A stretch of DNA of 62,101 bases, counting the filler, from Hausera hauseri (lineage: Eukaryota), in NCBI GenBank assembly GCA_046269625.1. It is 12 parts of 12 records of this genome, joined end to end, with 100 filler letters (N's around TTAATTAATTAA, not from the genome) between each part and the next. Parts side by side here need not be neighbours in the genome. Positions count along the whole stretch, not along the records: positions 16,333 to 22,347 come from JBJURY010153088.1; 11 more parts are not named here. One strand, 5' to 3'. A model generated the notes under the pieces. That model had not been told where the DNA came from, did no database searches, and worked only from the letters and a program-made list of their open reading frames with translations. The position numbers and the translations under genes were made by a program. Of the stretch, positions 14,301 to 41,721 are shown piece after piece (the first letter of the stretch is position 1; every line of letters starts with the position of its first letter).

Positions 14301-15525
14301 GCAGCATTTCTTGGCATTCTTATTGTATACGCTATGATAATAGCAGATTGACGACCGCGCAGGCGATGGTGACCGGTTTCTAGATGCAGGAGGGGCGCGG
14401 TCAGTAGCAAAATTCCTTCGTCGGAACAGGGAAAGCTCGTTTAATATGTTGTTTATATTGTTAATTGTTGCGTGTAGTGCAATATTTTCAGCACGTAGTT
14501 GATTGACTTGTTGTTCTATTGATATATTATTGGTTTGAATATCGTTATGGGCAGCTGCCGCCAAAACGACTGGTGGGGAATGCAAGTGTAGAACATCATG
14601 CGTTTTATCGGCTAATTCGGTTAATTTCTCAAGAGCCGTGGTGTCCTCCACCAAGGTAAGTAAGGCTCGAATTTGGATGGGTAAAGCGTTAAGAAAGTAA
14701 AGACGCAGTAATTCGGGGTTGTGTCCTTTAGTGACGCCGAGAGTGTGAAGATGTGCCAAAAACGTGAGTAAAAATTTTGATGGTCGTTGTACGCTTGTAG
14801 CATTGTCGTGGAAGAAGCGTTGTATGATGGTGGCCATGGAGGGTTTTGTGATTTTAAGAACAGTATTGGAGAGCTGTGAGTGTAGGTCAGAAAGTTCAGA
14901 TATTTCAAGGATGTTGTGAATGCGTGTTTTGATATTGTTAGGAAGTAAGAAGAGGAGATTGTGTGCCTTGGTTAAGGGATCGGTGATATTGTTTGCCTCT
15001 AGCCACAGTTGATGGAATTACAACCACGTTTTGCTAGAGCCTTGGTTTTCAATGAAGAATTCGGTGCAATTAGTGAAAGGAGCGGAAGAGGTAGTAGATG
15101 AAGTATTATTGGTGGAAGCAGGAGTGGGCTTTCGGAGTAGTATGACAGATTTGGGTTTTGTGGTGGTTTTATTCGTGGTGTCTATGGTGGGCGATGAATT
15201 CATGCCATCACGGATGCCGAAGTGTATGTGGAGGTGAATATAAGTTGAGGAATGCAGCCGTGGTGTGTAAAGTAAAAGTCAGGTGAGCGAAGAAAAGTGG
15301 AGATGATGTTGTAGATAGTATCATTGTTTAAGTGTATTAATGCATTTGTGCAAATATGTTTATTATTTAAAAACGAAAAGGAAATACGGAGAGGCCATGT
15401 AGCCGGGGGCGTGTTGTGGGGTGCCAGCGAGCGGTGCCGCCTGACAAAATGGAGTAGGGTGGGCGGCCGTGGCTTCAGTCTCGCCGCGACGGATCGCGGA
15501 TTTCGGGGTAGCCGAATTCCCCACG
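11367..15525 (-). mobile_element. CsRn1/Kabuki-like Ty3/gypsy LTR retrotransposon, copy 1 (decayed; 3' end runs off contig)
   Basis: Gag with CYYH..NAKKC..C knuckle (14250-14837); protease FLIDTGAAISLL (13757-14116); RT (SPWSSPLHVVQK, YRQLN, DLAKAYHQIP, YIDN) and RNase H (VGAVLHQ, RYSTFDRELLAI) in 12138-13682; integrase (VHIDIVG, RWPEAIPL, WIGRFG) in 11367-11984. Confidence 0.95.
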
Positions 15526-16332
15526 GAAATAGTAGATTTAGGACAATTATAAGGCGATTATATATGGTGGGTTTCCAAGTGCCGTCGAAGAACTTTTTTA
15601 TTCGGGTTTTTATTTTTTCACATCTCTGAAGTGGTTTTGAGGACAGTGGTCGCATATTTAACACATTTTGACAGGCATTAACAATGTTTTCAGATACGGT
15701 CCTTGGTACTTTGATTTTTGCTGCCTTGGGGTTTCCAGCTATGTTATCGTCATACTACAGCACAACGCGACTCTTTTGGACCTGGTCTAAGTCTGTAATA
15801 ATGGGATTGGTGTAAGATATGTAATTAATTCTATTATTTAATAGCGTAATGAACAAAACGTGAGAACGAAGATTATTATCCAGGATATTAAATTGATTGT
15901 AGAATGCTAGATACACGGTTTGCGATGATACAGCACTATCTGATGAAACGTAGTTAAGGGCAGCGATTTCTTCGTCTGCTGAATTTGTATGCTGAGTAAT
16001 TTCATTATTTTCAGGTATAATCAAAACGCTTTTAAATAATTTTAAAAAAACTCAAACATGAGCGCAGAAATACGGAAAGGACTTTTGAAATTGGAAGTGA
16101 GTATAAACACCAATATTACGTTGTCCAAAACACCAATATCGGAACAGCACGGGATAGGTGAGAAAATGTTCTGACACCATTTGTTATGTCTTTTGTATGA
16201 ACTTTCAATTGACTTAGATATTTGATTGATTCNNNNNNNNNNNNNNNNNNNNNNNNNNNNNNNNNNNNNNNNNNNNTTAATTAATTAANNNNNNNNNNNN
16301 NNNNNNNNNNNNNNNNNNNNNNNNNNNNNNNN

Positions 16333-19243
16333 GAGGAATGGCCGTCTGGTGTGATAACATGGCCTAAAAAGTTAATATGCTTTTTGAAAAATTGGAATTT
16401 GTCAAAATGGACTTGGAGATTATGATGGTTGGGACGTTGAAATATTGCGCGAAGGTGTTCGTCGTGTTGTTTGGCCGAAGATGAAACGACTAAAATGTCG
16501 TCGATATAAGGATGTGCAAACGGGAAATCGGAAAGAATTGAATCGATGTGACGCTAAAAAGTTTGTGCGGCATTCCGCAAATTGAATGGCATAAATAGAT
16601 ATTCATAGAGGCCAAAGGAGTATTTACTGCGGTTTTTTCAATGTCTTCGGGTGCCACCGGTATTTGATGGTATGCTTTAGCTAGATCAATGGTTGAATAG
16701 ATGGTGGTTGAATTAAGACGATGCAAGATATCCTTGAGGAGTGGTAAAGGATATGCGTCCATGATAGTCAAGTTATTCAGCTGTCGGTAATCACCGCATG
16801 GTTTAAAAGTACCGTCCTTTTTTGTACAACGTATAACGGTGATGACCAAGGAGACTGGGAACGACGTACTATACCGGAATGTTCTAGCTTGAGTAATTCG
16901 GCTTCTACGGCCTGTCTACGACGAGGTGACGGAGGCCGTACCTTTGGCGTATTGGACGTTGGTGCTGTGACTATATGGTGTAAAGTGCTGTTTGCGGGAG
17001 TAAAGAAACGGTCTTTTTTAAGAACGCGTGGACAAGATGTGTTGACGAACTGTTGTAAAGTTGTAGGTAACTGTGACAGATTTGGTGAATGTTGTGAAAC
17101 GGCTTGAGTAGTAGCAAATGCAATGTGTGAGTTGTTTGGTGATGTGCAGTCAAGTGGTATTTGGTGTAAGATGGTTGAATTGAAAATGGTGTTGGCAGAG
17201 GTAATTTCGTCGAATGAGTTAGCGTTGGTGGCAGTACCACAATTATCGAAATCAAATTTCGATCGTATATCCATATTATTGTTTAAAAATTTACGAATAT
17301 AATTATTGTTATAAAAAATCGAATTATTCAGACTTTTTTAAGATTGACTTCCGCATTCCGGTCGACTGCGCGGTAATCGAAACGCTATTTACATGTCCAG
17401 AAATGTCGCCAACGGTGCCTTTCCTCAAACACCGCTGACTGCAGTTAACCAGTAAGTTGTAGTGTGAGAAAAGTCAGATCCTAGGATTGCCGACTGGACG
17501 TTAGCTACTGTGAACGTCCAGTGGAAGGGTGAAAGAAAATTCGGCAGTAAAAGATAGTTTAGTCGTGCCAGAAATGTGCAGCGGTTGACCTGAAGCAGTG
17601 TATAAGTGTTTGATCTTGAATGGAGTATTTTGTTCGGGAAAAGTTGATGGTAGTAAAGAAATTGCTGCACCTGTATCGATGAGAAAGTTAATAGATTGTG
17701 TTGAAGTGGCAGTGATTGCAGCCTTTAGAGTGAAGACTGAAAAAGAGACGTGTCGGCGTGCAGAACGTGAAACAGTGCCTTTGCCAGAGTTTGCCGTGAC
17801 CTCTGGCGGCGAACTTAGTTTTTTTGAAAAGATGAACTGGGACGACTGTGAGAAGTAAAGGCAGTACGTCCGTCGTTTGTATTGGATTTGAAGTTGCAGC
17901 CGGGGATACATTTACGTGCTTGATTTTTGAATCTTGCATGGTAAATGCAAACAACGGTGTACGAGGAAAAATTCTTGTTGTAAAATTGGCAACCCAGGCA
18001 GCATTTCTGAGCATTTGTGTTGAATCTGCCGTGGTAATAGCAGATCGGCGAACGCGCAGGCGATAGTGAGCGGTTTCGTGACGCAGAACGGGTACGATCA
18101 GCGGCAAAACCCCCTCGTCGGGACAGAGACAATTAGTTCGATTTATTATTGATGTTATTGTTTGTTGCATGCAGTGCAATGTTTTCAGCACGTGGCTGAC
18201 TAAGTTGTTGTTTTATAGATGTGTTATCATTTGCGGTAACTGCTGCTGAAACTACTGGTTGAGAATTTGCGTGTAGGACATCGTGTGTACTATCGGCCAA
18301 TTCGGCCAACTTTTTAAGCGGCGTGGAGTCTTCCACCACGGTAAGGAGGGCCCGGATTTGGATAGGTAGCACATTAAGAAAATAGTGGTGTAGAAGACCT
18401 GGGTTGTGCTCCTTAGTTACGCCAAGAGTACGCAAGTGTGCCAACGAGGTGCGTAGGAAGTCAATGGGTTTTTGTGTCCCCATTGCACTTTCATTAAAGA
18501 AACGTTGCATTATAGAGTCAATTGAAGGTTTTGTATGTTTTAATACAACGTTGAATGGTTGGGTATAAGGGTTAAGGTGTTGAAAGGTGTCTAGTAAGTT
18601 ATGGATTGAGGCTTTTATGAAGTTTGGGAGAAGATAGAGTAGGCTATGGGCTTTGGATAAGCAGTCTATGATATCGTTGGACTGTAACCAGAGTTGATAG
18701 AAGTGAAGCCACGTTTTACTGGACTTTTCATTATCTATGAAGTATTCAGTGCGTGTGAAGTATTGGTAGGATTTTTGTGATAATTTGCATGGATTGAAGT
18801 AGGTGCAGGGTTTGGTTTGGAGTAGTAGAGAATGGGTATTGGCTTTTTTGTGGTTGTATCCGTGGTGTAAATAGTTGGAGAAGAATTCATGCCACCAGGG
18901 ATACGGAGATGTATGTTGAAACGAGCATGATTTGAAAAGGAAGGTAAAGTTTCGTTGAGATGTATGATAGTACCGTGATTTGTGAGGTAAAAGTCAGAAG
19001 AACCAAGGATAGAAGAAATGCGGGTTTGAAGGGTGAAAATGTGTGGATATGTTGTATTGAGGGTATAAATATGTATTTTGTTAAAAAGAAAAAATGGAAG
19101 TTGGAGCAGTGGTGGGCCTGGAGGCATGGTGTGAGGCCGACGCCGGAGGCGCCGTGCGACCGACCGGCGTAGGGTTGGCGGTCGGGATCTCCGCCCCGGC
19201 AGGGTGGACACCAAATTGCAGGGTGCTCGAGTTTCCCCTCAAA
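16333..19243 (-). mobile_element. Same gypsy family, copy 2 (UBL-gag-protease-partial RT; frameshifted)
   Basis: Collinear with copy 1: gag 17815-19127, protease FLIDTGAAIS 17501-17911, RT DLAKAYHQIP and YIDD in 16333-16849. Confidence 0.95.
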
Positions 19244-19249
19244 GGTGCC

Positions 19250-20271
19250 GTCAATGCTGCTCGACATTTCTGAATTGCCATCATGACATCTCTATGTTTA
19301 ACTGCATCGCGTTAGTTCATAACAATCTATATGAATTTCCCTTTATTTAAGTCAATTTAAGTTGTTTGGTGATCTTTCGGGGAGACACCAGTTGTGATTT
19401 GTTTGACCGATGAACTGACATACTTAAATCGTGTTTCGTGCAGCATTGGGGAATCTTGCATTGTTGCATGGTGTATGCTTGAGTACGGTATGGAATTTGT
19501 ATGTACTTCTTTTAAACCATAATTCATAGTTGTTTCAAATCGCGCTAATGCTGTAGGTGAGCTAATCATTAGAGATATTATTTGATTGAGGTTAGAATAA
19601 TATGGTGAATTCCTCAACAATAGATATTTACAAACGTCATAAAGAGCTTCATTATTAAAAGGTATAGACAAATCACACGTATCTAGTGTTGTATGACTAT
19701 GAAATATGCTATTGTCTGGTTCAACGATCGCCGTAGACATTATCAAGCTGGGGAATAATGCCAATTGTATTAGGTTTGTTTTGGGATAACCAACGGCTAA
19801 CTGCTGCATTATCAACGCGCAAACTCTAGACCCCGTATCGTCACCTATACTGTTAATGACGATAAATGCATGCGAATTATTCGTTATGTCAGCTAGTTTA
19901 AATAGCTGCGGTCGAAACAATCTTATTAATCGTACACCAGGATTGAGACTTTGTCGAGCGAAACTGTTACCGGAATCTTCACGGTTAGCAATCATTAATT
20001 CCCTACTAGAAATATTTCGACATGCACCGATCTTAATATTATTTATGCATGTGGGCTGTGAATCGATAAGTATAGCTCTTGGATTGAACATACAGTAGTT
20101 TATTGGTTGGGATAGTACTGTCGTTCGGTCAGGTTTGTTAGCTAAATCATCTTTTAATGTTTTTAGTCCATCTGGATCAGTGGTGTGTTCAGGACACAAT
20201 AATTCCAGCAGTGTACTGGCGCATTGCACACCAAACTGACCGGTATGTATGAAAACCACTTTAGACGGTAT
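19250..20271 (-). pseudogene. Intronless divergent alpha-tubulin fragment (about residues 1-338)
   Basis: IHTGQFGVQ, CPEH..PDG, PRAILID, EDSGNSFAR, STAIVEPDNS, NEALYDVC, NLNQII match alpha-tubulin; GGGTGSG is degraded to GDDTGSR; homology continues past stops (GKFI...DVMMAI) to the gypsy boundary. Confidence 0.9.
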
Positions 20272-20349
20272 GCATTTATAAGGTAATAGTTGTATAATGA
20301 CTGTTGAATGAAAGGTTACCTGGCAGCAGTTATGTATCCTTCGGCCACC

Positions 20350-20550
20350 AATTTCGCAGACACGAGGCTGTTTAGCATTAGTTAATACATCTCCAGATGT
20401 ATGTAGCAAATTTGCCATTTGTTTCATAGTGAGTTCTCGAACAGTGGGAATTCGGAAAGCAACATCAAAAAGATGTGCGGCAATTAATTCAATATTCTTG
20501 ATGTCCTCAATTCGAGTTAATTTAATCAATGCAGAGACATACCATTTCGT
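20350..20550 (-). pseudogene. AP3D1: AP-3 complex delta subunit fragment
   Basis: KWYVSALIKLTRIEDIKNIELIAAHLFDVAFRIPTVRELTMKQMANLL...VCEI resembles AP3D WY..LV.LTR.E...LIA.Q.LDVAIRV..IR.....QM..LL. Confidence 0.75.
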
Positions 20551-20670
20551 TCGATCTTATTATTGAATCGTATCATTTAACATTTTCATACGTGAAAATA
20601 TAAATTCACACGTTCGTGGAGCATGAATATTTAATTGATCAATTTTTTCTTTTATCTGCCTATTGAGCTC

Positions 20671-21261
20671 CTAATAATCAACGAGTTCCCGATTACCGTC
20701 CTCAATTGGTTTAAAACCAACATAAAATACATTAGAAAACCCCAACGGCTGATCAGGTTTAGCCTCCCGAATTCGGTTTAAAATGAACTTTTCGTTTAGT
20801 GTAAGATCTGTGTATTCAACAGTATAAAAAAGCAAAAATGCTGGAGTTAACATTTCCGCTTTACACTTATACTCATTTGCTTTCACTTCCAGTTGGACTT
20901 TAAAATATTTGTCAAATGCGTATTGAGCATCAGTAATAAGTTCGAATGTTTCCTGATTCAAGCGGCTATCTCTAGTGCGATACAGTACCAAATAGGACAA
21001 TGCCGTTATTTTCATAAGTAAACGCTTTTGAACATTGGGCGTTTTTGACACGCCTTATAAACCTTTAGTGTCAATACGCATGTAGCATAGATATCTGTCT
21101 TTCTCTCTCGTGACAGCCGTCCAAACTCCGATTGTGCATCGATTCAATTCGTGAAACTTTCTACTGTCCGTATCAATCATTATTTCAAATTGCCCGCCAT
21201 CGTAAAAATCAACGACAACTTCTTTCGAAACCTTTCTGGCAGTCGGATCAGAATGATCCAT
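20671..21261 (-). pseudogene. Unidentified coding-like fragment(s) within the mosaic
   Basis: Two adjacent same-frame ORFs (21055-21261, 20671-21051) separated by one stop; protein-like composition; no family recognised. Confidence 0.35.
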
Positions 21262-21283
21262 CGTATCACAATTGAACAGACGA

Positions 21284-22076
21284 TTAAACCGATTGGCATG
21301 TCACACAAAGAGCCATCATTTTTTTAAGGATAATGAGCAAATCACCGGTCGTTACCATGCAATTGTAAACACATGCTAAGATAAATTGTGAATGCATTTG
21401 GAAGATGTCATCGAGATTCTGAGCTTTGTCGAGTTTCGTCTCCAAGTCAATCCAAAGAGGCTCAATAACCTCAGTAGTCATATAGTACAATAAGTCCTCA
21501 ATGAATATTCGCATACTATTACCCAGCACATTTGCCTTACTAATTAGTCGGATATTTTTACGACTCTGTGTTGCTGCACTTATTCGTCAACCACATATTG
21601 GAAAGAGCCTGTTTCACATAGTGACAGTAAAAAAGGTGTCTGAACAATATTTGATATTGTTGAACGACAGAAAAATTCAGAACAAGACTGATTGGCCATT
21701 CGGTTAGAACGTTCAACGAAAGAGCTTCCAAAACGTGCAAATTTTTACCGGTAATTGTTTTTGTCGGAATTTTTTCATTTTTACCCGGATCAAATCGTAA
21801 TACAGTAAAAATAAAAGTCAACAGTTCTTGATCACTAAACTCGATCTTGAGATTATCTTTGAGAGATTCGTTGACAGAACATCCAGCTTGAAAGGTAACA
21901 TCTAACACAGATTCCAATTTCATTTTGGAATAATCTGTCACTTTTACACTTAATTCGTCTTTTGCCAAATACCTGAAATGAGACAACCAGTCGCCCTCTG
22001 ATAGTAGGAAGTAATGTTTCGTGAATCTGAGATGATTCTTCAGTTTCTTATCCTGAAACATTATGTCCATCAACAT
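21284..22076 (-). pseudogene. TUBGCP2: Intronless gamma-tubulin complex component 2 fragment (GRIP2 region), frameshifted
   Basis: HLRFTKHYFLLSEGDW, LEALSL...WPISLVLN, YQILFRHLFYCHYV, YYMTTEVIEPLW, NLDDIFQMH match GCP2. Confidence 0.88.
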
Positions 22077-22347
22077 TGATAATTCCGCTATTTAGCAATC
22101 GGTCGATCAGTCTTTCAACCTCTGGCTTCAAGTGAATCGGAAGTCTTCTTGGAGGCTGCGCAATTGGGTCCCCTGTCGTCTCAATGTGATGTTGCACGAT
22201 CTTTGTATGGCCTATGTGAAAAGCTGAAGCCATAAAAATATCACCGTACTTTTGAATCATCCTTTTGAGAGATGGGTGTGCTGCAAAAACTTCCAAGGCC
22301 AACTGTGTCCGCTTCTCTGTCGTCACTTCTTGTGTCGTCTTTTGTGA
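22077..22347 (-). mobile_element. Fragment of a different gypsy RT N-terminus, abutting the GCP2 fragment
   Basis: DIF...IGHTKIVQHHIETTGDPIAQPPRRLP...VERLIDRLLNSGII. Confidence 0.85.
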
Positions 22348-22447: not shown

Positions 22448-24832
22448 ATTTATTCGTTGCCGTATACAGCTGGTGCTCAATCGATCGGATGATCGTTTGA
22501 GGTACAACAGCCTTTGATTGTCCTTCTTCTTTTTCATAGATACGGCGATAATCACCGTGGTCGATTTCTGCCTGTTTCAGCTAGACTCCTTTTGCCCGCA
22601 TTTTCGGTCCACAGTCCGTCAGAAGACTGTAGCACTTTAGGTGTAGGAATATTTATTTCCGATACCGGACACGACCTTCACTTTCATCCTTGAAGCAGCC
22701 GATTTTGTTGTTGATCGCGCTGCTGTACAACGGATGATCCGGTAGGTAGTTAAACGTGTCCAGTGGTCCATCTTCCATCATTTACCGGAGCAGTTGGTCG
22801 CGATTGACGTTTTTCAGCTTAAGAAAAAAGTTATCTGTGTCGCCGGCAACTGTACCTATCTCACAGCCGTCGAATATTTGCCGGTATCGTGCCAAGTCGT
22901 GATACTGGAGCTCATACATTCGCAACTTGCTCAGATACAATACCACTTGTCCGATGTAGCTTGGGCGGTCCAGTACGACTTCTTCCCGGTTTAGAAGCAC
23001 GGCGACCAATCCATCGGCAATGTGCATTGATCGCTTGAACAGAGCCTTGCTGGTATACGTGACCAATCGTTTTTCGCTATTGCATAAGTGTACATTTAGC
23101 CGCTTTTTTTAGATTCTCCACTGTTTTTCCGTACATGGAATTGTTTTTGAGCTTGTAGTAGTCCTTTTCAAACTTTGTACAAGCTGCGGCTTGTTTCTCC
23201 AAATTTCCATCAATGTACGCCTTGAATATCCACGCCTGGTTGAAGAGGATTGCACGATGCAGCTGTGTAAAACTGCAGCAGACGCCAATGAACCACGTAA
23301 TTCGATTTGGGTTCATGTGTTATGAGTAGTTTCTTTACTTTTGAGCCTCCGGGTGGACAATGACTCATTGATGCCACGGGTAATTCGTCCAGAGCGTCAT
23401 GCAGCTCATCCTGTACCAGGAGATCAACTTACATTAGGTAGCCGATTGAGCTGTATTCTGTCATGTTTGCCGCTGTTGCTGCTGGAAGACTGTCCAGCAA
23501 TATATCCAGTTCTTGTTTGTCCATTATCCATTCAAATGAACCGTACGGCAAGGGTTGCGAATGCGCCGAGTCGTACATGTTATTAATGTCGATATACAAC
23601 ATTGATGTGGTATAATCACTGGTTACGTGATACCTTTTGACAAATGTCATGCCGCCGCGAATGCCAACATCAAATAGCCGGTATATTTCCGGGTCTTGGA
23701 ACAGCTCAATTTTGCTGTTCAGCGACATTACTGCCGATGCCCAACTCATTCTCGGTATGGAGTACAATTTTAGCGGCTCCAGCCTATCTTTCATCAACGC
23801 CTTAGCACGAAATATCTGAAACACATCGGCTAACATTAACACGTCCAAGTTCAGATACTAAAGCATGTACTCCAACAGGTTTTTGCAGCCGAGCTCTGCA
23901 AAAAACGACTGTGCTTTGTGATATTCTTCGTCTGTGATACCGGGCCATTGCGGTGGTAATTCGTCTGTCGTCTGGAGCCGCTCATACCATATAGCAAAGT
24001 CATAAGGGAATATGCCTTTGCTGCGTGAAATATGCGCGGAGACCTGTGTCAGTGTCAGCGGCACATCCGGCAAGGCATTTACGAGCTTTGCCAGAGACTC
24101 ATTGAGGAACTGCAATGAGTTAAGAAATCGTACCTGAAACCGGTTTATGCGTGCCGATAGGGACAGGTATTTCTCCATTGTTGTTGGTATTATGGATAGC
24201 TCCCAGTGCGGAAATCCGTTTATGGCTCATTTCATAATATAGTGACCGTCATAATCCCTGAAGTTATGAAATATTACCGGCAGGAATAGCCGCACCAATC
24301 TTGCCAAATTGCATGCGTTGCATGCTGCTCCCAGGTACTGACCAATGAAATGATTGTGATCCTGTGCATCGAACGGCAATATTTTGTGGAACAGGTAATA
24401 TTCGTGTGCCCAGACCAAGGGTATAGCGCTATTATTTTGATACCACGGTGCGATTTCCGTTTCCACTATAGTCTCCAAGTAATGTAGAAAATCACGCACA
24501 CAATTTCTTCCTAGGAAAACATAGTATTGCGGTTGTCCGTCGGCTTTAATAGGCACAACCTGCACGCCGACGGCGATTGGAACATGCTTTTGGACATATA
24601 TATTGTGCCGTGGTATATCGACATATACTACATATGCCGGGCTGTCTGTTTTTGACCAATTAGTGAATCTCAGTTCCTTTTTGACGCGCATGACGTACAC
24701 TATGGTTCCCAAGGAATTGTATTTGCACAGATTCACATGTTTCTCCCATGTTGTTTCCGATCTGAATCCATGCAGACATGCGGGACACCATTTACATCGT
24801 ATACGCTTTTTGATGAACTGGTCATGTTCCAT
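22448..24832 (-). mobile_element. Decayed protein-primed family B DNA polymerase (Polinton/adintovirus-like), relic 1
   Basis: DHNHFIGQYLGAACNACNL, FHNFRDYD (Exo II), DVLMLADVF (Exo III), YIDINNMY (motif A), KLKNNSMYGKTVEN (B), GDTDNF (C); many stops and frameshifts. Confidence 0.93.
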
Positions 24833-26199
24833 GTTTAGCGATTGATTATTGAAATTTTAAAATTCATTATCAAAAAATATGCCCATAGTAAATCCACGTG
24901 TTTTCATGCAATACGTTTTCAGTGATTGTAGTGTGTAACAAACTATCCAACAATCTAATGAACCCAAATGCAAACAACCAATAAAATCACTATCTACAGT
25001 ACTATTACGAATGTAATTGGAATGTTTCTGATATGAATTATCACAAATTTAATGAACAATAAAACAACAATCGAGAATCAAATAATGGTAATATAAGAAC
25101 GTTTCCTTCCATCTTTATATTTATGTATAATATATTGTACACTAAATCGCCGAATTCCTTCATCAAACCCTCTAATCATGTCATACAGCGGACAGATCAA
25201 ACAACCGATAAAATTAAAATACTTCGTACCATTGAGACAAACCGGTCGTGTACAACAACGACAAAAAAAGAATTCTTTAGTCCGATATGGCATTTTCATT
25301 CTTCATCTTTTGCTCGGAGGAATAATCTTCGGACATCCTTTCGGGCATTATTCTTTATTATTCTTCTGAAAACCATAATATCATTTGTCGCATTTATTCC
25401 GAATTTTGTCGTACTTATCTCGACGGCGTGTTAAAACACAACAGACGTTACAGCAAATGGAAAACAACTATCAATGGTTTTTCATCTGTTCCGTAAAGTT
25501 TTATGATAACGGATCTTTAATTTCAACTGGTTATCCTAGTTAGTTTTTTCATGTCGTCGTCTTCGTCTACATTTTCTTCACCAATGCCTTTGTCGTTGTT
25601 GCTTTTATTGTTATTTATACAGTGAAAAATTCTCGGGTCAAGCATAGGTTGTTTCGACTGTGACGTGATTATATCGGCTGTATTCATATGGTGATAGGAC
25701 AAAAATTGTTCACAATACGACTGCCAAATAATAATTGGCGTTGGTGATAGGATTTGTCAGTGAAAATGAACAGCTGCATATGGGCCATGCGTAACTGTTT
25801 GTGGGGGTTGGCGATCGCGATTGAAGACGAACATAATTTCAGAGTCCTCAGCTTATTGGCAATGTATGAGACCGATTTCCATAACCCGCAGATTTGAACA
25901 TGGAGAAATTTTACTTGTTTGAAATTTTCCCATCGATTTTTCCACCTGTTCCTATGGTGTGACCGAGTTGCAGTCGAGTCCATTGCAATCTCCAATATCT
26001 ATTTACCCCTTGTACACATTTTCTCAGTGCTAGAAACATACTTCGCGTTACACGCGGAACATTTCCTGTTTTGCTTCTTTCTCTTCTAGCGCCTCTCTCT
26101 TACATTTCTGTAAGCAGCACCTCCGTTAACTTTTGCTCACCTTGTCACACGCTATCGATATCATCTAATCAGAACCCCTTTGTTCGACCTCATTTCCTG

Positions 26200-27199: not shown

Positions 27200-28472
27200 A
27201 TGTAAGATGAAGTTTCGCATGGTATATGCAAACAATTTTGTCTGGACAATGTGGAATGTAATATCTACATCCTAAACAGCATTCATTAGCTTTATTGTTA
27301 AATTTGCTATGATAATAGCACACAAAAGGTCATGTAGGCGATGGTGACCTGTTTCTGGAAACAGAACGAATACGATTATACACAGGAACACTACGTCGTG
27401 GTAATGAAAGATCGTTCAACCTATTATTAATGTTGTTTATTGTCTGTTGTAGTGCTAAATTTTCAGCGCGTTATTGACTCAACTGTTGCTCTATTGTTGT
27501 ATTGAATTTATTGTCGCTTGTTGTGACCGCGGCTGATACAATTGGTTGGGAAGTCAATTGTAGCACTTCAGGTGCTTTATCAGCCAATTCGGCTAATTAA
27601 TCCAACGCCGTAGATTCCTCAACAACGGTAAGAAATGCCCTCATTTGTATAGGCAACGCGTTTAAGAAATATCGTTGCAGAAGGTCTAAATTATGCTTCT
27701 TGGTTACGCATAGCGTTTGCAGGTGAGTCAACGACGTACGCGGGAACTTAGAAGGCTTTTGTGTTCCCATTGCGTTATAATTAAAGAAGCGATGAATTAT
27801 AGAGTCCATGGACGGCTCTGTAAGTTTTATAACTGCATTTTAATTATGAGTATAAGGGTCAGCCTGCTGAAAAATATCTGTAAGATTGTAGATACGAGTT
27901 TTGATGTTGGTTAAAAGAAGGAATAGAAGATTGTTAGCCTTAGCCAAAGAATCAGTAATGTCATAAGATTCAAGCCATAGTTGGTGAAACTGCAACCAAG
28001 TTTTGCTAGAATTTTGGTTGTCAGTAAAATACTCAGTACACTGAGATGGGTTGATACCTGTTTGCTTATGCAGAGAAATCTTATAAGAGTTTTGAGGAGT
28101 TCTTGACGGTTTAAGGTTAGACTGTTTGAGGTAAATAATCGATTTAGGTTTAGCAGGATCGTCCGAAGTGTCAATGGTGGAAGAGGATTGCATCCCACCA
28201 CGGACTCTAGGAATGATGTGAAAACAGATGTAGGAAGGCTTAAAGGCGATGTCTTGAAGACTGTTAAGGACGAAGCCATTGTGAGTCAGGTAAAAATGGA
28301 AGATATGGATTATTGTACGAATATGGTCATGTAAATGTGTAATATCTTTATAGTTTATTACATTTAGAGTATGTACTAATTTATTATTTAAAAAACAAAA
28401 TTAAGAGTGTAGGTAATAGGCAGCCGGTTGGGTGGTATAGCATTCCTGCGCATCGCTCTCCGTACCCCACAG
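27200..28472 (-). mobile_element. Same gypsy family, copy 3 (UBL-gag only, truncated in the second CHCC knuckle)
   Basis: MQSSSTIDT..., SSKTWLQFHQLWLES..ITD, GTQKPSKF, YFLNALPIQMRA; collinear with copies 1 and 2. Confidence 0.92.
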
Positions 28473-29119
28473 CCGTTGGTGTAACAGCTGAAGGATTAGA
28501 TCCATTACAACGGAGTTAAAATATCGGAGGTGAAAAGAGAAGCTTGTCGTAGAATTCAACCGATGGTGTAAGGTGAGAAAAAGAAGCGTTGATTCTAGAA
28601 TCAATCACCTCTCGCCAAGAAATTTGTAATATTTCGATATGGTGATAAACGGGTAGCATTGAAGCGGTACAGAAAACAAAATCCGTTGAGGAAAAACAGA
28701 CGGTTATGTTATGTATTATAGGTTGCCGCGGTGATAGAACATTGTGATGTGATTGTAGAACATTGGATATTTTTCGGACGGGATTTGTAACCTTCGGATG
28801 ATTGAAAAATGAGAATAATGTCATGCACCGTTCGTTAAAGGAAATCCGGGAATATCCTGCAATGGTTCCATCGATTGAATTAATAGTGAAAATAGGTCTA
28901 TCTCGAGATAATGTAATTCGTAATAGCCATATTAATATGTCTTCAAGGTGCAAAAGGGAGATAAATGTCAATATTCCATACGTACCATTTGTATCATCCG
29001 AAAAGTATGGTTCAAAAGACCGTCGGTAATAGTTACCGATAATAATAAAATGGAAGAAACTACGCAATCGGTTAAAATGGGGCTTTTCACAAAGGGAAAT
29101 GTTAAAAATGTTATGAAAT

Positions 29120-29340
29120 GTGTCCATCCATCCCAACCTATCAAAATGTATAACAAAGCATACTTCAGCATTATGTAGCTTAATAAGTTTGTCGAAATCC
29201 TTCGTATGTTTAAACCAACATGGGATTACGACTGTAACCATTGTTTTGAACATTTGGAAAGTATCGGTATCTGTGACTGTATTCGAATTGCGAGGAATAT
29301 TGGATTCAGGAAAAATGACATGTACGACCACTTTGTTCAC
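29120..29340 (+). pseudogene. Possible myosin motor-domain fragment, antisense to the mosaic
   Basis: FVC/KPT..WDYD...EHLESIGICDCIRIARNIGF...YDHFV loosely resembles myosin CIKPN..FD...QL...G.LE.IRI.R.GF....Y..F. Confidence 0.3.
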
Positions 29341-29979
29341 ATTAGAAATGAATTGAAAACCAAAAATAAAGCTGAGAATCGGTGTTGAGAACCGATACAC
29401 TTAACATGAAAAAGGATATGACAAAAATAATTCTGTGTTATCGACAAAAGACGGATAACCGTAAAGGAGTATATTATATTTATTACATGGCAACAAAATA
29501 GATTGTCTCATTCGATGTAAGGTGACGTAGGTCTGTAGAACATAGTCCGTCCACCTGGGCAAACCACAAATCTTCGAGTGCATGCTGGATACGCTTTGAT
29601 TTATATCTTAAGGGAGGGAGTTTGGACAAAAAAGGCGAATCGTAGGCAAAACCCAAAAGGTGTATAACTTTGGATATCGTTGCGAGTTGATCGGATCCTA
29701 TTGGCCAATGTATATAACGTAGTATTCTTGTATAAAAACAGCTACACTTGTCCCTAGAACGGTGTGCAGTATACCTATTTCCGGTAAAATACCAATAAAT
29801 TGGTCAACAGAAACGTACGATTTAGTTTTGACAGCAAATACGTCACGCGTTATAATACCATGACTATCTTCTTCTTCAGTATCTGTCAGAAGTATATCAT
29901 CCATAATTCGTTCCTTGTTAGCATCAGTAGGTGTGCTAGTCGATATTGAACCGGGATTGTCTTTTTCAACAGGTGTAAT

Positions 29980-30255
29980 TGCAATAGCTACACAAACAGC
30001 AGCTAAAACTTCGGAATATTCTGATTTCAGTAAGCTGATAATCAATTCCAATTCACCAATAAAGGATCGTACTATTTCGCCCGTATTCTTAGTATTGTCA
30101 ATACATGGACAAATAGACCAAGCTGCATTAGCTTGTACTTCCGGATTCGGGTTTTTAACAAAGACCAAAGCAACCGTATACCATCTGGTAAGTCGATAAT
30201 AGTCATGCTATGTGATTCCTCGGCACATCGACCGACAGCCCATGCGGTCAACCCA
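29980..30255 (-). pseudogene. ARMC4: ARMC4/ODAD2 armadillo-repeat fragment, frameshifted
   Basis: AVGRCAEESHSMTIIDLPDGIRLLWSLLK/NPNPEVQANAAWSICPCIDNTKNTGEIVRSFIGELELIISLLKS..EVLAAVC matches ARMC4 ARM repeats. Confidence 0.88.
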
Positions 30256-30269
30256 TGCATGTCCACGTC

Positions 30270-32485
30270 ATGCAGTTGGTCACAGAACAATTTAATCAGA
30301 TTATAGCCGTTATCGAAATATTGATAATCGTCGTCTATTTTGTCGCCCATGTCAGTGAATGGAAATGGTGAAGTCACATCTATGGCCGATTGGAATTCAT
30401 CGTTGTATATTTCCTCTGTGGAATAGGTGGGAGCCAAGTTCGACTGGACGTACCAGTAGAAACAGCCAAATGTCTGGATCCAATTGAGTCGTTTCAAGAG
30501 TGACAAAACGGACCCATCTGATAAGACCAGTGAGGTCGGACCGGATAGTAGAAAGTAGATGCGGAGAATGTTCCGAGGAATGTGAGCATAGGTCCATTTC
30601 AAGTGACATAACTGCAGCTGTTCACGCAGAACATCACTAGGATGCAGCGGACCACCGACCTGAGCAATAAGAAGAGCCAGACGGTAGTGTGCAGTGAAGA
30701 CCGACAATTTAGCAGTGGTGGTCATTTCCCTACAACATATTAGATCGGGAATGAGATCGTTGACATGATTCTTGTCTAATGTGCTAATGGTACACTTCAG
30801 TACCGCAGTAACAGCATCCACCAATTTCCCACGGTTTTGTTCCCTGATCCAATGAGACAAAGCCTGTTTACGAGCTACATCTTGCAGACACCCGGGTAAC
30901 GGGTCCTTCGACTCGACGTCCAATCTGCCCCACAACGCGTGGTACATACTAACAATACGCTCGAATGTCTGTCGTTCCTCGGTTGACTGACCAATTGTAG
31001 TGGCATGCACAGAAAGATAAGCGGTCAGTACATCGATACCTTCCGTCGGCTGCATATGAGGACAGCCGGTAATAGACGATGCTCCTGTATGATACGATAT
31101 GACCAATGACGAATCCAATAATTTCATCTGGTATTCGCTGATGTCATACGAATGATTCACGAATCGCAATGAGTTCGGCGACGGAAATCGTTGCATAAAT
31201 GGACGATGTTCCGTTTGTGCTTTGATAACATGTTTCACAAGTAAATGACGACCGGATGCGTCCCTCAATGCCGAATAGATCGCTGGACGAAATCTGCTAC
31301 CAGCACGGAATGCTGGTTCCAAGAAACATTTCTTGTACAGATTAGCGTCTGTCGGTTCCATGGATTTCATTAATCGCATTGGCAGATACAATTGTGTCAA
31401 CGAATTCACATCTTGCAGATAATTAGGAATCTCCAATCGCCGACACTTCTGTACCTTTGATTGTACCGGAGTTGTCGATGAAACAGTGTACGCCACGATC
31501 GGGTTAATGGAACTGTCATCCAAATCTTTGAACGCGGTCATTTCCTTGAAATTAATAACGGCATTGGACTGTTCGACTTTATCTGAACTTCGGAATGGCT
31601 ATTCGAGAAATCCCTCACCCATTTCCATTGATTCAAATTTCTTAGCAAACGGTTCGCATTTATCAAAACCAAACGAACGATTATCGATCGAACGGCGAAC
31701 AGAAAATATGCTGTCAGCCATACACTCGTCATCATCACTCTCATACATCGGCAATCGAATTTCCATGCAGAATAAATTGTGATTTTTAGATATCTGCGCC
31801 AGTTTACTAATTGGCGTTAAAAAACTTATTTCTTCATTTGTCATTGAATCGGCTTCTGCCGATAATACCTCGTATTCGTCATGCGACGATTTATTCGCCA
31901 GTTTTGCCGGTGTTCGTCTAAGCCGACCAGCGTCATTATTCGACAACGGTTCAACGTCATTATCATCATTATCCCAATCAACAAATCGATATTTACCAAA
32001 GAGATAAATTTTAAATACCCACGAACCCGAATAAAACTTGCACCAATTATATTCGTACACCGTTTCAATTTCTGTTCGAAATAATCCGGATTAACATCGG
32101 TGCCACTGTTTCGGTTCAATTCCTCCAGAGATCTGTCTACAAATGATGAAATACTGGCTTCGGTTTTCAGTCTAACTAAGGAAAATGAACTCTCATGTAA
32201 CGAATTGTTGCTGTTAATGAACTTCCGGGATTTATCCCATATGGACGATAGAAAATACGTCCAACATCCGCGTTTCGTGAAAAATGCTCGATTTAAACTC
32301 ATGATTTTTGTCGACGGCCAATCGTCAACATCAAACCCAATGAAGACTTTCGATGGGTTATTTACGTGCAAATTGGAATTCGAGATTTCCCGGCGGACAT
32401 TCGACGAATTGGCTAATTTACCTGAATCGTGTCGTTTGATGACATGCGATAGAATGTTCAAACGGTTGATGTTAGCTTCTGGCAT
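30270..32485 (-). pseudogene. NUP98: Intronless Nup98-Nup96 precursor fragment, frameshifted
   Basis: YFEQKLK...GASF, SGSWVFKI..F.KY (autoproteolysis region), ALWG, ARKQALSHWI, YRLALLIAQ, LRIYFLLSG, LNWIQTFGCFYWY, YNLIKLF match Nup98/96. Confidence 0.85.
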
Positions 32486-33019
32486 TGCTGTTCTGTCATT
32501 TGGTTGGGGCGATTAGNNNNNNNNNNNNNNNNNNNNNNNNNNNNNNNNNNNNNNNNNNNNTTAATTAATTAANNNNNNNNNNNNNNNNNNNNNNNNNNNN
32601 NNNNNNNNNNNNNNNNGGCTTACATTAAGTGGCAGCAGGTAGTAGTGTTCTTTTTTATTTGTATGATGTATTAACCTTATTTTAATGAATATGATGATTT
32701 ATGCAGTGCATTTTGTAATTCTTTATCGAGTAATTTTTGGTTGTAGCAGTTTATTAGGTATATTTTTTTGTATATTTTCTGTACTTGAGAAAAGTGTCAT
32801 GTTCTGTTGTTAAATTCTACTTGCATTTTATTTATTTATTTATAATTTTTTTTGGCTTTTGCACTATGGTATGTTAATAGTGTGAAGAATTAGGGTTATT
32901 GTAGGTGAGTGGTTTGTTTTTATTGGTTTTTGCTTTTTATTGTGTGTATTTGTTATGCGGTGGCCAATTTTTTCTCGAGAAATGTGATTTTTATATGTAT
33001 TTTATTTCTGATAATTTAC

Positions 33020-33545
33020 CTTTGGTTCTGAAGGAATCATGTCAGACTCTACCGGCTTTGCTGTGAATACACAGCTAGCATATTCACAGCGAAGTTGGCA
33101 GAGCATGCATCCATTGAAGCTTTTTTTTTAGCGAATGTAAGACCCGCGGAGTATGTGAATGCGAAATGCCGATTTTGAGTTATTTATTTTTATTATTTGC
33201 TTTTTGACATGCATCTGTTGTGGCGCGAGATAGAGTCGCACCAACTTGGTGACTACGGAAGCTTGCGAAAAAGAAATGGTGTCTGGGTGTGGCTCGTAAG
33301 CGACATCTGTTCCATGTATCTTGGTTCCAAAGGAACCATGTCGGGCATAGCAGTCAGCATATTCATGGTGAAGCTGGCAGTGCGTGCATACACTGAAGTT
33401 TAAATGAGAACTTTGAGGGTTTATTTTTATTCTTTGCTTTTTATTGTGGCACGAGACAGAATGGCACCAACTTGGCGACTACAGAAGGTCACCAAAAAAC
33501 ATGGTGTCCGGGTGCGGCGTCTGAGCAACATGTATACCATTGCTA
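33020..33545. repeat. Diverged tandem repeat of two modules (A-B-A'-B'), with a third B copy near 34140-34230
   Basis: TTGGTTC..AAGGAA.CATGTC at 33022 and 33321; TGTGGC.CGAGA.AGA..GCACCAACTTGG.GACTAC at ~33219 and ~33445. Confidence 0.7.
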
Positions 33546-34827
33546 ATAGGTTGTTTGTTATATTTATAGTCATGAAGATATGTTTCACTATAGAAGTTAG
33601 TTTAAAAAAGGTTGTTTTGAAATGTCTGAAGGGTAATGCTGATATGAGGATGAAGCCTGAGAAAAGTTTTTGATGGTTCTGTTTGGATTTCTTGGTTTAA
33701 GCAGGAATGTTTCTGTTTGTGCACGTTTTGTTAGGAATGTTTTTTGGTTTACTTTTCCTTGTTTGACTATGGAGGAGGTTTATTGTTGACATATGGAATT
33801 GTGAGGTAATTTTTTTTTTTGTTTTTGCAAGGTTTTTTTTTTTTTTTTTCCCTGTAATTTTTTCAGGCTTAGTTTTTTGGAAACTTTACCATCATTTGTA
33901 CTTTTGTTGTTTTATACTTTGTTTCTTGGAAATTTGATCATGGTTTGTTCTTTTGTTATACTGCGTTTGGTTTTTCATTTTGCTGGATGTTTGGTTTTTA
34001 TTAGTTCTGAAAAGAGCTTGTTTTTAATATGTTTTTTGTTTTATGTTGTGTTTTATATTAGTAAGCATTTTGGAATGATAATGTCAAGAATTGGTGTTAT
34101 TTTATGCAGGTGGTTTATTTATTTATTTATTTTGTGTGTGTGTGAAGTAGAATCGCACAAAGTTGGTATGGGAGGTCACGAAGAAAACATGGTGGCCAGG
34201 TGAGGTGTGGTAGATGCATTTGTCCCATTAGTTTGTGCAAAGGTGATCTGAAGAGTACTTGTATAAAATAAATATCTTATAACATTTTGTATTAGTTATT
34301 GGAGGTTATTTTATGTTTAAAAAATTCAGTTGATTTAGGAAGATTATTTGCTAGAAATATATTTTGTACTCTAAAGTATTTACTCACATTAATTTTGGTT
34401 TGGATTTGCTTTTTTTCTTTCAGGTGCTTATTGAATATAAACCTGTAGCAACCTGAAAGATGAAAGAGGGCACATCGGAAATAACCATCATCTGAAGTTA
34501 ATACTTTCGCGCTGAATACAGAAGACGCTTGTGATGTCAAGATTTGGATCCTCGAGTCTTACCTTGTTCCAGATTGTTTTTACAGCTTCAACCTTTCCTC
34601 CGCTATCAGCGCTGTGTGTCTCAAGCTCAACATGAGCTATTATGTTGCCGCATTTATTTATTTTTTGTTATGTAATTGTTTGTATAAGTTTTATGTAAGT
34701 TTTTATTAAATTATGTTACTGTTAAATTAGTGTATCTTCATTTGAATTATACTACTTTCTTTTAACCAATCTGGATTTTCCAATCAATCTCCTTTTTACT
34801 TATGTTATTCAGAATACAGGTACGAGG

Positions 34828-37648: not shown

Positions 37649-40600
37649 ACTTATGACGTATGCTTGTAAACACGAAGGATCGGTCTCTTTAATTAAAGAT
37701 GTAATTATTCCTCCTCGCTCCGAGATAGTAGTACCTGGGAGAATAGAAGGAGACGTACAAATTACACCCGTGTATTTCAAACCTTTCCCGCGAATAATGT
37801 AGAAACACGACATTCTTATCGCACCACACGTAGACAAGGTGAGAAATGGAATGATTCAATTAAGAATCTGCAATACGGAGAATACAGAAAAGAAACTAAG
37901 AAAAAATACCCGAGTGGGACAAATAACGATGGTTGAGGATGTATTAAAAGAGAAAATTAATTCTACAATTGCGGATGTGGACAAAATTGAAAAAAGGATG
38001 ACGGAGAAGTTCAAGATAGAAACAAATAAAGACCGAGTTAAAAGTGTCAGCATTAATTGGGAAGAAAAATTGCAAGATAATAAAGTATTTAGTAAGGAGG
38101 AGAAAGGAATTTTAATACAGCTGCTGGAAAAAATAATAACAAACTCGTACAGAATGACTATGATTTATGAACAATGAAAGTGATACAGTACGCCATTAAA
38201 TTGAAAAAGGCACAGGAAAAACCCTTGAAGAAACGACCATATCTACTAGCCTATAGTAAAAAGCAGCAGACCCGTAAAATCATGAAAAAAATGAGGGAGA
38301 ATAAGATAATTTGACCCATCTGTTTTCCATGGACCGCACCAGTGGTCATGGTAAAATGAAGGATGGAACTATGAGGTTCTGTATAGATTACCAAGCATTA
38401 AACGAGATAACGGAGACGAATACGTATCCTCTACCAAAAATCGACGAGATAGTGGACAAATTGCAAGGTTCAACTATATGTACGACTATTGATCTACAGA
38501 AAGGATATTGGCAGGTGGAAGTAAAAGAAGAGGACAAACCAAAAACGGCCTTCACGATAGGCAAAGGATTATGGGAATTTAATAGAATGCCATTCGGAAT
38601 AAGAAATCGGACCGCATACATTTCAGCGAGGAATGGAATTACTACTGTTAGACGCACCACATGCCATGGTATACATTGACGATGTAATTATAGCATCACC
38701 AGATTTCCATCAACATTTGAAGGATTTACAGGACCTTTTCGACAGATGTGAAATAATGGGTCTCAAAATAAGTGCAAAGAAATGTTGCTTTGCCCAGGCA
38801 GAAGTCGACTTCCTTGGACATCGAGTTAATAGGCATGATGTAAAACCTCAGGATAAGTTGATAGGTAAAATGAAAGATTTTCCGAAACCGGCCACAGTGA
38901 GAAAATTACTCCTATTTTTAGAACTTGCAAATTATTATCGAAGATTCATAAAAGATTTCAGAAAAATAGCTCGACCACTATACGAGTTATTGCGTGAAGA
39001 TTTAGAGAAGGTGTGATGGGCCGCTGATTGACAAAAGGCATTTGAAATCTTAATAGAAAAATTATGAAACGCGCCAGTTTTGGTCTACAAGATATGACTA
39101 AACCCTTCATATTAGCGACAGACGCAAGTGACTATAAAGTCTGGGCGGTTTTATCACAAAAGGGTGAATATGGAAAAGAACACCCAGTAGCGTATGCATT
39201 AAGAAAACTAAATAAACACCAAAAGAAATATGCGGTCACTGAAAAGGAATTATTTGCCGTAATATTCGCCTTAGAGGTATTCTTACCATACATTAGTGAG
39301 AATAAGCCATTTTTAATATATACAGATTGTCGACCTCTGCAGTGCTTCAGACAACACGAAAACCCAAATAGTCGCTCATTACGATGAGCTCTCAAGTCGC
39401 AACCTTACGCGATAAATTTCCAAATACTACTGCAGGCTACCTATCGAGAATGAAGAAACCGCCAAAAGAAAAGAAAGAAGTAGTTGCAGCTGTATGGAGC
39501 ATGGATAGGTCTGTAGCAAAAATAAAGGACAACCAACAAGAGGACGTCAAAATAAAGTCGATTAGAAGCTACATACAGAGTAAAATTATACCATAAGATA
39601 AGGAGTTAGTCCGCCACCTGGCTCGATTTAGCGATGCCTACGAGAAGAAGGAAAGATTTTTGTATTATACACACCAAGATGGAACAGCATTAGTAATATC
39701 TAATAAGAACAGAACAGTACCATTGGCTAACTACCATGATAAACTTTCGGTGGACATCAGTCGACTCGAAAAACCATAAGTAAATTGAAAAAAAATAATT
39801 TTGGCCGACTATGGCGAAAGATGTTCAAGAATGGTGTGATAGTTGCCACACGAAAAAATACTGAATCAAATTTCAAAGCTCCCCTCAAAGTATGGGAGAA
39901 TCCTCCTGCTCCGTTTGAATTTACCACCATGGATATAACAGAATCATTACCATTAACAAGAAATGGAAATAAATACATCTTTGTCTTTATAGACTACTTT
40001 ACATGATAGGTCGTAGCATTATCTATGCCGGACATGAAAGCGGATACAATCGCCGAAAATTTTGTAGAAAATATTGTGTTCAATTACGGAGCTCCAAGAT
40101 TCTTATTGACAGAACAAGCCTCGAATTTAATTGGGAACGTAGTGCAAGCTATTTATGGTATAATGCGCGTATCAAAGTTACAATCGACTACAGGCCACCC
40201 AGAAAATAATGGCATGTTCTAAAGATGCACTAGTGACTTGAAAAATAAACTACAAACAGTTGTTAGTACTAGACAAGACTATTGGGACGAATATATTAAT
40301 GCCTGCGTGTTCGTAAATCGGACACCGGTGCACGAAACTACGAAAGGAACACCATTCTACTCGATGTTTTTGAGAGGCCAGGCTACCAGTCGATCTGGAT
40401 TTTAATGCTAGACCCATTTCTCATCTGATGGAAGTAGAAGAATACAAACAGTTGATGCAAAAACTTCTACAACTAGCCTATAAGATAATGAAAGACAATC
40501 AGAAAGAGTATAAATTGACCTACAAGAAATACTACGACGCGAAAACTAAGCAACGCAAAATTAAAGTTGGAGATAAAATGATGTTACATACACCATTAGA

Positions 40601-40808
40601 TGAGAAATGCAAAACATCCAAGTTGGATAGGCCTTATAAGGAACCGTACGAAGTAGAAAAAGTGGCCCTACCCAATATATATCTAAAAAAAAATAACGTC
40701 AGAATCAAAGTACATGTCAACAGGTGTAAACCTGTTCCTAAGAAAAGTAAATTAAGAGCAGATGAACAAGAATTTGTAAGAGCCATCAGCCATAAAAGAA
40801 AAGTTTAG
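37649..40808 (+). mobile_element. Decayed Ty3/gypsy pol (RT-RNase H-integrase)
   Basis: MRFCIDYQALN, DLQKGYWQV, KTAF, YIDD, LATDAS, AVTEKELFAV, MDITESLPLTRNGNKYIFVFIDYFT, GPY-like KEPYEV. Confidence 0.95.
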
Positions 40809-40819
40809 ATTACGAAATA

Positions 40820-41605
40820 TTGAAATATTTCTGTCTATTGGTCCTTATAGGAGTATCAGGCCTGTTGGCCCAGTCGACAAAACCGTTTGATCCATGGATG
40901 AGAACATACCCTTTAAAGGAAACATAAAAAAGTAGCCTAATGAAAAGTATTTAGCACGAGATAACCTATACAAGGAAAGGTCGAAAATGTGTAAAGTTCA
41001 TGGTATTTAAAAGGCTACCTAAGCGGTATATGATAGGAATTCAGGCAATCCACGAGGATGATTATGAACGAAGGCCGAAACAAGGAAAGTATGATTGCGG
41101 CATTACTTATTGGGGGAACACAACGGAATGTATAATATATTACTCTGGAAATTATCTTAGATACTATATTCTGATCAAGTTACATAAGAACCACTGTCAG
41201 TGGCAACACACTAAGTTCCGAGGCATTGTACAGGTTCCCAATAGACGAACAATGAACGCAACAAGATTAGATGGAATAATAATAACCCAACTCACCGTTA
41301 AGCCGATAGGATTTAAAAGCGGACGAAGTTGTATCGAAATTAGAACAATGATACCGTTGGAAGAGAACACAGCAGTAAATATAAGACTTACAGATGTACA
41401 AAATGCCATCTAACTGACATACACCTCAGAGTCTGCTGTAATATCCTACAAGGCTAAACTTACTATTTAGAATTTGTGTTAGTACGAAAGGATTCAGGGA
41501 TCGACAAGACTCTAACCCACCAACGGCCCAGAACGTATGTTCGACTTAAAAATGCCTTTGAATATAATGACTAGCAGCAACCAAGTGAGTAGGGGAAAGA
41601 GAGGA
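40820..41605 (+). pseudogene. Putative env-like third ORF of the gypsy element (broken)
   Basis: Signal-peptide-like LKYFCLLVLIGVSGLLAQS directly after pol; Cys residues and N-glycosylation sequons (NTT, NAT); furin-type RGKR at 41591-41602. Confidence 0.55.
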
Positions 41606-41721
41606 CACTGCGCCAATATAAATGTCCTATCTGGAGACCCTTCCAGGATTGAAAATCAGTAATTTTATATGCGAAAAATTTAGAAATCAATATTCTTTTG
41701 ATATCGATTGGCGCAATCGTG
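41606..41721. mobile_element. Possible tiny MITE truncating the env-like ORF
   Basis: Inverted ends CACTGCGCCAAT ... ATTGGCGCAATCGTG. Confidence 0.3.

Follow-up and report, generated by a model that had tools for sequence, protein, structure and literature searches.

Intronless host gene fragments, probably gathered by template switching and kept in one reading frame, upstream of gag in a CsRn1-type gypsy element of Hausera hauseri

Introduction

How does a row of truncated, co-oriented host gene fragments come to lie directly ahead of the gag-pol region of a gypsy retroelement? The question is raised by a short contig of the Hausera hauseri genome (assembly GCA_046269625.1; record JBJURY010153088.1). 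The contig, contig 4 (16333-22347), is one of the small contigs, separated by N44-spacer-N44 joints, that make up the window, i.e. the whole stretch of DNA analysed here (62,101 nucleotides, filler included). An earlier note had described it as a mosaic of partial, decayed and apparently intronless pieces, and had interpreted it as a concatemer of cDNA fragments built by repeated template switching of reverse transcriptase (RT), amounting to a record of co-packaged transcripts. The comparison contigs used below came from one public run (run-X1), which contains this DNA with half of its words and is possibly not the source of the assembly.

Results

Composition of contig 4

On the minus strand the contig reads, in succession, as an RT fragment, GCP2, an NTPase of the GBP/atlastin clan, AP-3 delta, alpha-tubulin and the gag-pol, preceded by a likely ubiquitin-like domain (UBL), of a CsRn1-type gypsy (Table 1). 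The mosaic is real: every piece named in the earlier note was found on the minus strand, in the order given and inside one contig, and the host pieces are partial. The decay ascribed to the pieces is present but only mild, most of the mosaic forming a single frame. No Rfam family was found in 11367-32516 and no tRNA in the window.

Table 1. Features of contig 4 and the corresponding upstream segments of contigs 6 and 3 (positions in the window)
Feature	Position	Strand	Basis and remarks
N-terminal RT fragment of another, high-copy LTR family	22078..22347	-	out of frame with GCP2; PDB foamy-virus PR-RT, E=2.7e-4
GCP2 (TUBGCP2) C-terminal-domain fragment, intronless	21146..22077	-	PF04130, E=7e-26 and 7e-17; GCP2 starts at 22076
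Site of lost 39-nt GT..AG intron, phase 0	21424..21425	-	insert in one low-depth run-X1 contig
Site of lost 40-nt GT..AG intron, phase 0	21231..21232	-	insert in one low-depth run-X1 contig
GBP/atlastin/RHD3-clan NTPase fragment	20580..21145 (ORF 21144-20581)	-	Atlas 0.95/0.93, recognition 2780; 2 stops in 188 codons
AP-3 delta fragment, residues ~409-481	20350..20579	-	E=9e-9; same frame as the NTPase piece
Stop-free linker in cargo frame	20266..20349	-	stop-free by chance in ~20% of shuffles
Alpha-tubulin, near start to ~residue 340, multi-copy	19258..20265	-	residues 3-294, E=2e-54; Tubulin_C, E=1e-5
Tail common to contigs 3, 4 and 6 (49 codons)	19081..19245	-	coding pattern in cargo frame; ends at shared TAA
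Likely ubiquitin-like domain	18891..19100	-	+1 frame relative to tail; ends GG directly before gag Met
gag, decayed, two CX2HX9CX3C motifs (18042, 17949)	17817..18890	-	ends in A-rich slippery run
pol from protease to RT, decayed and truncated at the contig end	16333..17830	-	RVT_1; 74% identical to contig-3 element over 2.6 kb
Second cargo, contig 6	28519..32090	-	Nup98-96, ARMC4, near-open segment, then tail, UBL and gag
Third upstream segment, contig 3, near-open	15540..16232	-	in UBL frame, not in tail frame

The upstream RT fragment is unlike the RT of contig 3 and does not belong to the family of the downstream element; at 22077, 11 run contigs continue as RT. All 30 homologues found for the GCP2 piece are of the GCP2 type, the named ones being metazoan (31-36% identity). 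Together with an ARMC4 gene and introns of 39-40 nt (see below), this makes an animal the most likely host. The reading frame of the GCP2 piece is broken twice, near 21566 and near 21298. Beyond the second of these the earlier note had listed two unknown ORFs; both are present and can be assigned. The first (21297-21146) most probably represents the tail of GCP2 after the frame break: against a profile of the 30 homologues it scored 8 to 10 bits above three controls, with the likeness reaching ~21235. Beyond this point (21234-21146) the likeness to GCP2 lacks significance, since 112 of 300 shuffles scored equally well; in pairwise comparison with GCP2 this end takes a collinear place in three of the four best alignments, and we infer that it belongs to the same tail. 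The second (21144-20581) is the NTPase piece, for which equally few stops occurred in 1 of 2000 shuffles. It had no real match in PDB, and its AlphaFold model was of unusable confidence. The piece resembles ZFYVE1/DFCP1, a name to be taken as tentative. ZFYVE1/DFCP1 is described as being like GBP1 and atlastin (PMC10329651).

The linker between AP-3 delta and tubulin is possibly the tubulin 5' UTR. The tubulin piece itself shares ~36% identity with tubulins of solved structure, a value obtained by manual counting in the alignment, and the homologue search with its ORF yielded only three weak and distant tubulin-family matches among 2202 candidates. It has no stop in its first 291 codons and three near its end, whereas neutral decay simulated to 40% identity (200 runs) gave a mean of 10.4 stops and a minimum of 3 in place of the 0 observed in 291 codons. 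A divergent parental paralogue would also explain this lack of stops, and the parent of the piece could have been such a gene.

Intron loss in the GCP2 piece

Three inserts relative to the window were among those listed in run contigs. Two of them read GT..AG on the coding strand and lie at exact codon boundaries within GCP2; in the window, both sites show precisely the sequence that splicing would leave. The third insert reflects the replacement of a stretch in a copy of tubulin. No parental sequence was seen for AP-3 delta or tubulin. The absence of two such precise inserts from the window points to an RNA origin of the GCP2 piece and argues against its capture at the DNA level. The claim that the pieces lack introns is therefore borne out for GCP2 alone, and a cDNA origin of this piece is supported. 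Retained parental introns, which the earlier note had regarded as speaking for DNA-level capture, were looked for in GCP2, and two introns are precisely missing, which speaks against a Pack-MULE or Helitron capture of this piece.

Junctions and related copies

The junction between the NTPase and AP-3 delta pieces (20579) is bridged by a 279-nt run contig with one difference, and three contigs have other upstream sequence at this point. The RT|GCP2 and GCP2|NTPase junctions are not spanned by any of the 8 pieces listed (of 363). A 1624-nt run contig, 91% alike, matches only from 21145 onward, and among the same 8 listed pieces 20871-21066 is covered by a 91% relative only. A long intron at its boundary was considered and dropped in favour of a gene-to-gene junction; the boundary may be an intron end.

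Misassembly of short repetitive contigs is another explanation to consider: the window is a bin of small unplaced contigs, the run used for comparison contains only half of the words, and two junctions are unbridged among the pieces listed. We regard this as the least probable of the explanations considered: the bridging contig matches across 20579 with a single difference in 279 nt, the window differs both from the intron-bearing and from the 88-91% relatives, and errors of assembly would neither excise introns precisely nor preserve a frame.

The AP-3 delta/tubulin part of the mosaic has many diverged copies. Each listed tubulin site is represented in 7-20 run contigs, with the listed pieces 85-88% identical, which marks the tubulin part as multi-copy and old; the listed GCP2 and NTPase sites have one run contig each. 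Summed contig depth, not taken here as a copy number, is 105-245 over tubulin and 14-30 over GCP2. One contig, 12% divergent, spans tubulin and linker; another, 84% alike, runs from tubulin through to 19234, extending less than 31 nt beyond the junction. At 19243 another upstream sequence is found in eight run contigs, and in another copy a single contig joins tubulin (19494) to pol (17217).

Among the differences listed between the tubulin piece and its other copies, 12 of the 19 best supported fall at third codon positions (P=0.007) and only 7 of these 19 are synonymous (P=0.20). The 20 differences listed for the NTPase piece (4 synonymous, 15 not) look neutral. The run contigs also depart from the window at both frame breaks of GCP2 and at two of the three tubulin stops, hence some of the decay is specific to this copy or to the assembly.

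The same element family with other cargo

Elements of this gypsy family also lie on contigs 3 and 6, with a DNA identity to contig 4 of 74% and 67%, respectively, and the DNA upstream of them is unrelated. In contig 6, a Nup98-96 fragment (~residues 860-1506, ~650 codons, with the autocleavage-site region included) runs in frame and without a stop into residues 819-912 of ARMC4, an outer-dynein-arm docking gene. The third segment of this cargo has 4 stops in 481 codons, a number as low being reached in 0 of 2000 shuffles. A break occurs near 32090, the mosaic region as a whole extending over 28519-32516 on the minus strand, and a stop lies inside the tail (28518). For the contig-3 segment only a faint hint of dynein light chain was obtained (E=0.24). 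No real PDB match was found for the near-open ~480-codon segment or the 5' part of contig 6, or for the contig-3 segment. We also considered that the cargo might be in frame with the UBL itself, an arrangement that holds for contig 3 only and was rejected.

The window includes the 5' side of three copies of the family, and in all three homology ends at about the same point and gives way to a different near-open sequence on the strand of the element. This shared endpoint bears on a further explanation, namely that the cDNA was made in trans (by LINE-type retroposition or in the patching of breaks) or was gathered by a Helitron or Polinton, the gypsy copies being later neighbours. Such an origin would suit the lack of an LTR in these contigs, the Polinton-type polB remnants on other contigs of the window and the derivation of the upstream RT piece from another family. 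It leaves unexplained why three of three copies share an endpoint while differing in their near-open upstream sequence, always on the element's strand; in addition, no fragment end has a poly(A) tail, and the introns of the GCP2 piece are lost. We consider it very unlikely.

One frame across the junctions

From 21297 to 19258 one frame contains 7 stops in 680 codons, while the other two contain 49 and 73; shuffles of the same stretch had a mean of 43.7 stops, and 0 of 2000 reached 7. This frame is common to the GCP2 tail, the NTPase, AP-3 delta, the linker, tubulin and the tail that follows. Over contigs 4 and 6 together, every host-host junction keeps the frame (5 of 5, P=0.004), although two of the five lean on the unnamed segment of contig 6 or on the inferred GCP2 tail; where the matches on both sides are firm the count is 3 of 3 (P=0.037). 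With all junctions included, 7 of 9 are in frame (P=0.008), the exceptions being RT|GCP2 and the junction of the contig-3 cargo with the tail, and the figure becomes 7 of 10 (P=0.02) once the break near 32090 is also treated as a junction. The excess of in-frame junctions, together with a layout that recurs with other cargo, points to selection. As a purely passive record of co-packaged transcripts, the description in the earlier note is therefore incomplete.

The same origin by template switching could instead have produced a neutral concatemer of junk, whose frames agree by luck and whose tubulin derives from a host paralogue that had diverged beforehand. Two of the nine junctions are after all out of frame, the NTPase differences look neutral, the synonymous excess in tubulin is not significant, and only three loci are concerned. 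Luck would nevertheless have to account for five in-frame host-host junctions out of five over two independent cargoes, for a stop-free linker, and for the coding pattern and common stop of the tail; on balance we judge this account unlikely.

The co-orientation might also reflect selection on the host, the locus being a unistrand source of small RNA, as the earlier note had suggested, or a domesticated chimeric gene. That all pieces lie on one strand and that element fragments are nested among them would agree with this. A small-RNA source has no evident need of an open frame, however, the cargo is sense to the element and there are many diverged copies, so that a host locus of either kind appears highly improbable.

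The tail, the UBL and the downstream gag-pol

In the 49 codons of the tail, 14, 23 and 11 of the first, second and third positions, respectively, are invariant, the second being the most conserved (P=0.027, for a frame picked after the data were seen), a weak coding pattern that is in register in the three copies. The UBL, which lies in the +1 frame, overlaps the shared stop at the end of the tail. The codon directly before this stop is AAA or TTT, so that a +1 shift into the frame of the UBL is formally possible; shifty stops of the AAA/TTT-stop kind are known. Folding of the tail RNA was no better than that of shuffles (z -0.4 to -0.8).

The domain before gag is plausibly a UBL, every score for it lying below threshold. 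Its best PDB match is SDE2, over a stretch ending in LRVRGG (E=0.25, sub-threshold), and Atlas leads to the ubiquitin clan (0.80-0.82, below threshold), so that the leads agree with each other; GG stands right before the gag Met in two of the three copies. No ubiquitin-family Pfam match was obtained, and the AlphaFold model had a pLDDT of 43. None of 197 longer proteins contained the UBL-gag combination, which is weak evidence, and no relatives were found in viral or metagenome contigs.

Four matches to CX2HX9CX3C occur in the window, two of them in the contig-4 element. No LTR pair was found among the repeats of these 5-6 kb contigs, and contig 4 ends inside RT on both sides; the host fragments may or may not be cargo of a giant retroelement, as the earlier note had suggested. 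A tRNA-Trp primer site is given for the CsRn1 clade (PMC2582038); inspection by eye of the shared 5' boundary, with no LTR to anchor the site, revealed nothing convincing.

Other features of the window

The sense strand of the element is G-poor over 11367-19250 and 27200-28530 (GC skew -0.2 to -0.4). Tubulin (-0.08) and the last piece of contig 6 (-0.15) deviate slightly in the same direction, and the outer pieces do not (GCP2 +0.09, NTPase +0.11); the skew of the cargo may track the time spent in the element.

Decayed remnants of protein-primed polB (Polinton/Maverick-like) occupy 22448-24856, 48391-49900 and 60062-61750, as judged from PF03175 matches in contigs 5 and 12 and by eye only in contig 10. 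Two more decayed gypsy pol/integrase remnants, mutually related, lie on the plus strand in 38000-43500 (contigs 8 and 9). On the same strand of contig 11 (54090-55753), short ORFs include a weak RING finger match and a stretch that looks exonuclease-like by eye; they may come from a virus or a Polinton. Long degenerate satellites extend over 6878-11266 (~4.4 kb, TCGT-type) and 44031-48290 (~4.2 kb, TC/TCTCTG-type), and 32800-34230 (contig 7) holds short dispersed direct repeats (46-133 nt, 72-82% alike) with T-rich flanks.

Discussion

We propose that contig 4 contains a decayed copy of a CsRn1-type gypsy element in which intronless host fragments were fused in one frame upstream of gag through RT template switches and were kept in frame by selection, a reading to which we would give a probability of about 0.62. 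Its first half agrees with the cDNA concatemer of the earlier note, as template switching fits the partial, co-oriented pieces, the intron loss in GCP2 and a mechanism already established for metazoan LTR elements, in which switching onto co-packaged mRNA yields partial, multi-gene and re-copied chimeras, some of them constrained (PMC5131818). The second half is an addition: template switching explains why the pieces are partial, sense-oriented, intronless and layered in age, but does not by itself explain why the frame was retained, and the simplest further step would be translation through the upstream ORF.

In such a scheme RT would switch template inside the particle onto co-packaged mRNAs, and fragments would be added upstream of gag. 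Capture would have proceeded in layers, with AP-3 delta and tubulin acquired first and then spread (their copies being 85-88% alike), and the NTPase and GCP2 presumably added later. The RNA of the element would be translated through the upstream ORF, and captures containing stops would be lost, either through coupling of gag translation to that of the cargo or through degradation of such RNAs. At the conserved stop of the tail the cargo frame comes to an end, and from there ribosomes might, more conjecturally, reach gag by a +1 shift or by re-initiation; with similar reserve, host deubiquitinases might cut after the GG of the UBL and release a gag whose N-terminus is the same for any upstream cargo. 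The cargo would be free to grow as long as it stayed free of stops.

The locus shares with LTR-mediated retrocopies the joining of partial mRNAs to LTR-element sequence and the presence of several genes in one chimera, a described mouse case combining four genes and an Alu (PMC5131818). The flanks are co-oriented here as well, with an RT piece upstream and gag-pol downstream, which however belong to two families, and re-copying is apparent from the 7-20 contigs per tubulin site and the joint of tubulin with pol in another copy. In the retrocopies as outlined in that source, the captured sequence stands in for a portion of the internal ORFs, 'in-frame' being meant relative to the parental protein (PMC5131818). 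Here, in contrast, the cargo lies upstream of a normally arranged gag-pol, successive host-host junctions keep one frame, and varied cargoes occupy the same slot. The best reading is therefore a multi-gene LTR retrocopy of the known template-switch kind that fills an additional ORF ahead of gag which selection has kept open, the latter being the novel part.

Two features recall the CsRn1 clade of Ty3/gypsy, the CX2HX9CX3C motif of gag and a slippery run at the gag end that is compatible with the -1 overlap of some members (PMC2582038). The element differs in its duplicated motif, the likely UBL before gag and the upstream cargo frame, none of which figures in the parts of the clade description relied on here (PMC2582038). 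The planarian giant gypsy Burro/GYPSM1 likewise combines host-like domains, including a Ubi2/SUMO-like one, in its polyprotein with accessory upstream ORFs, and is portrayed as having a CCHC gag at the N-terminus followed by whole regulatory domains (PMC6431247). The contig-4 element, with a CHCC gag and, ahead of it, truncated housekeeping fragments that vary between copies, is not a giant gypsy of the Burro type. In the literature outside subscription journals and repeat databases, no CsRn1 element with a CHCC gag or UBL-gag and a variable in-frame host cargo ORF was found.

A more distant parallel is offered by pestiviruses, which capture host RNA fragments in frame and in which a ubiquitin or UBL unit, cut after GG, releases a viral protein. 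There the events are those of RNA virus recombination within one polyprotein, whereas here the UBL and the cargo are in different frames and their link is only inferred.

Host mRNA fragments are likely picked up by this element family in the course of reverse transcription, and selection has likely kept them translatable. A stronger form of the idea, which we entertain only tentatively, is that of a built-in cargo slot: an extra ORF before gag would take up host mRNA fragments in frame, different ones in each sub-lineage, with coupling by a +1 shift and with UBL cleavage to free gag.

Should the frames prove random, the locus would be an ordinary, if rich, example of a known mechanism. Multi-gene LTR retrocopies are known as occasional products; here a single family appears to carry, at the same site and in one frame, multi-gene cargoes that differ between copies. 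If confirmed, this would permit a direct test of the filter acting on captured RNA, be it translation reaching gag, degradation of RNAs with stops or a function of the cargo itself, and layered junctions would order the capture events in time. The question bears on retroviral transduction of host genes and on the origin of chimeric genes. Were the cargo slot real, the family would be a continuous, selection-filtered machine for domain shuffling, whose copies log germline mRNAs and which makes multi-domain decoy proteins containing parts of microtubules and of the nuclear pore.
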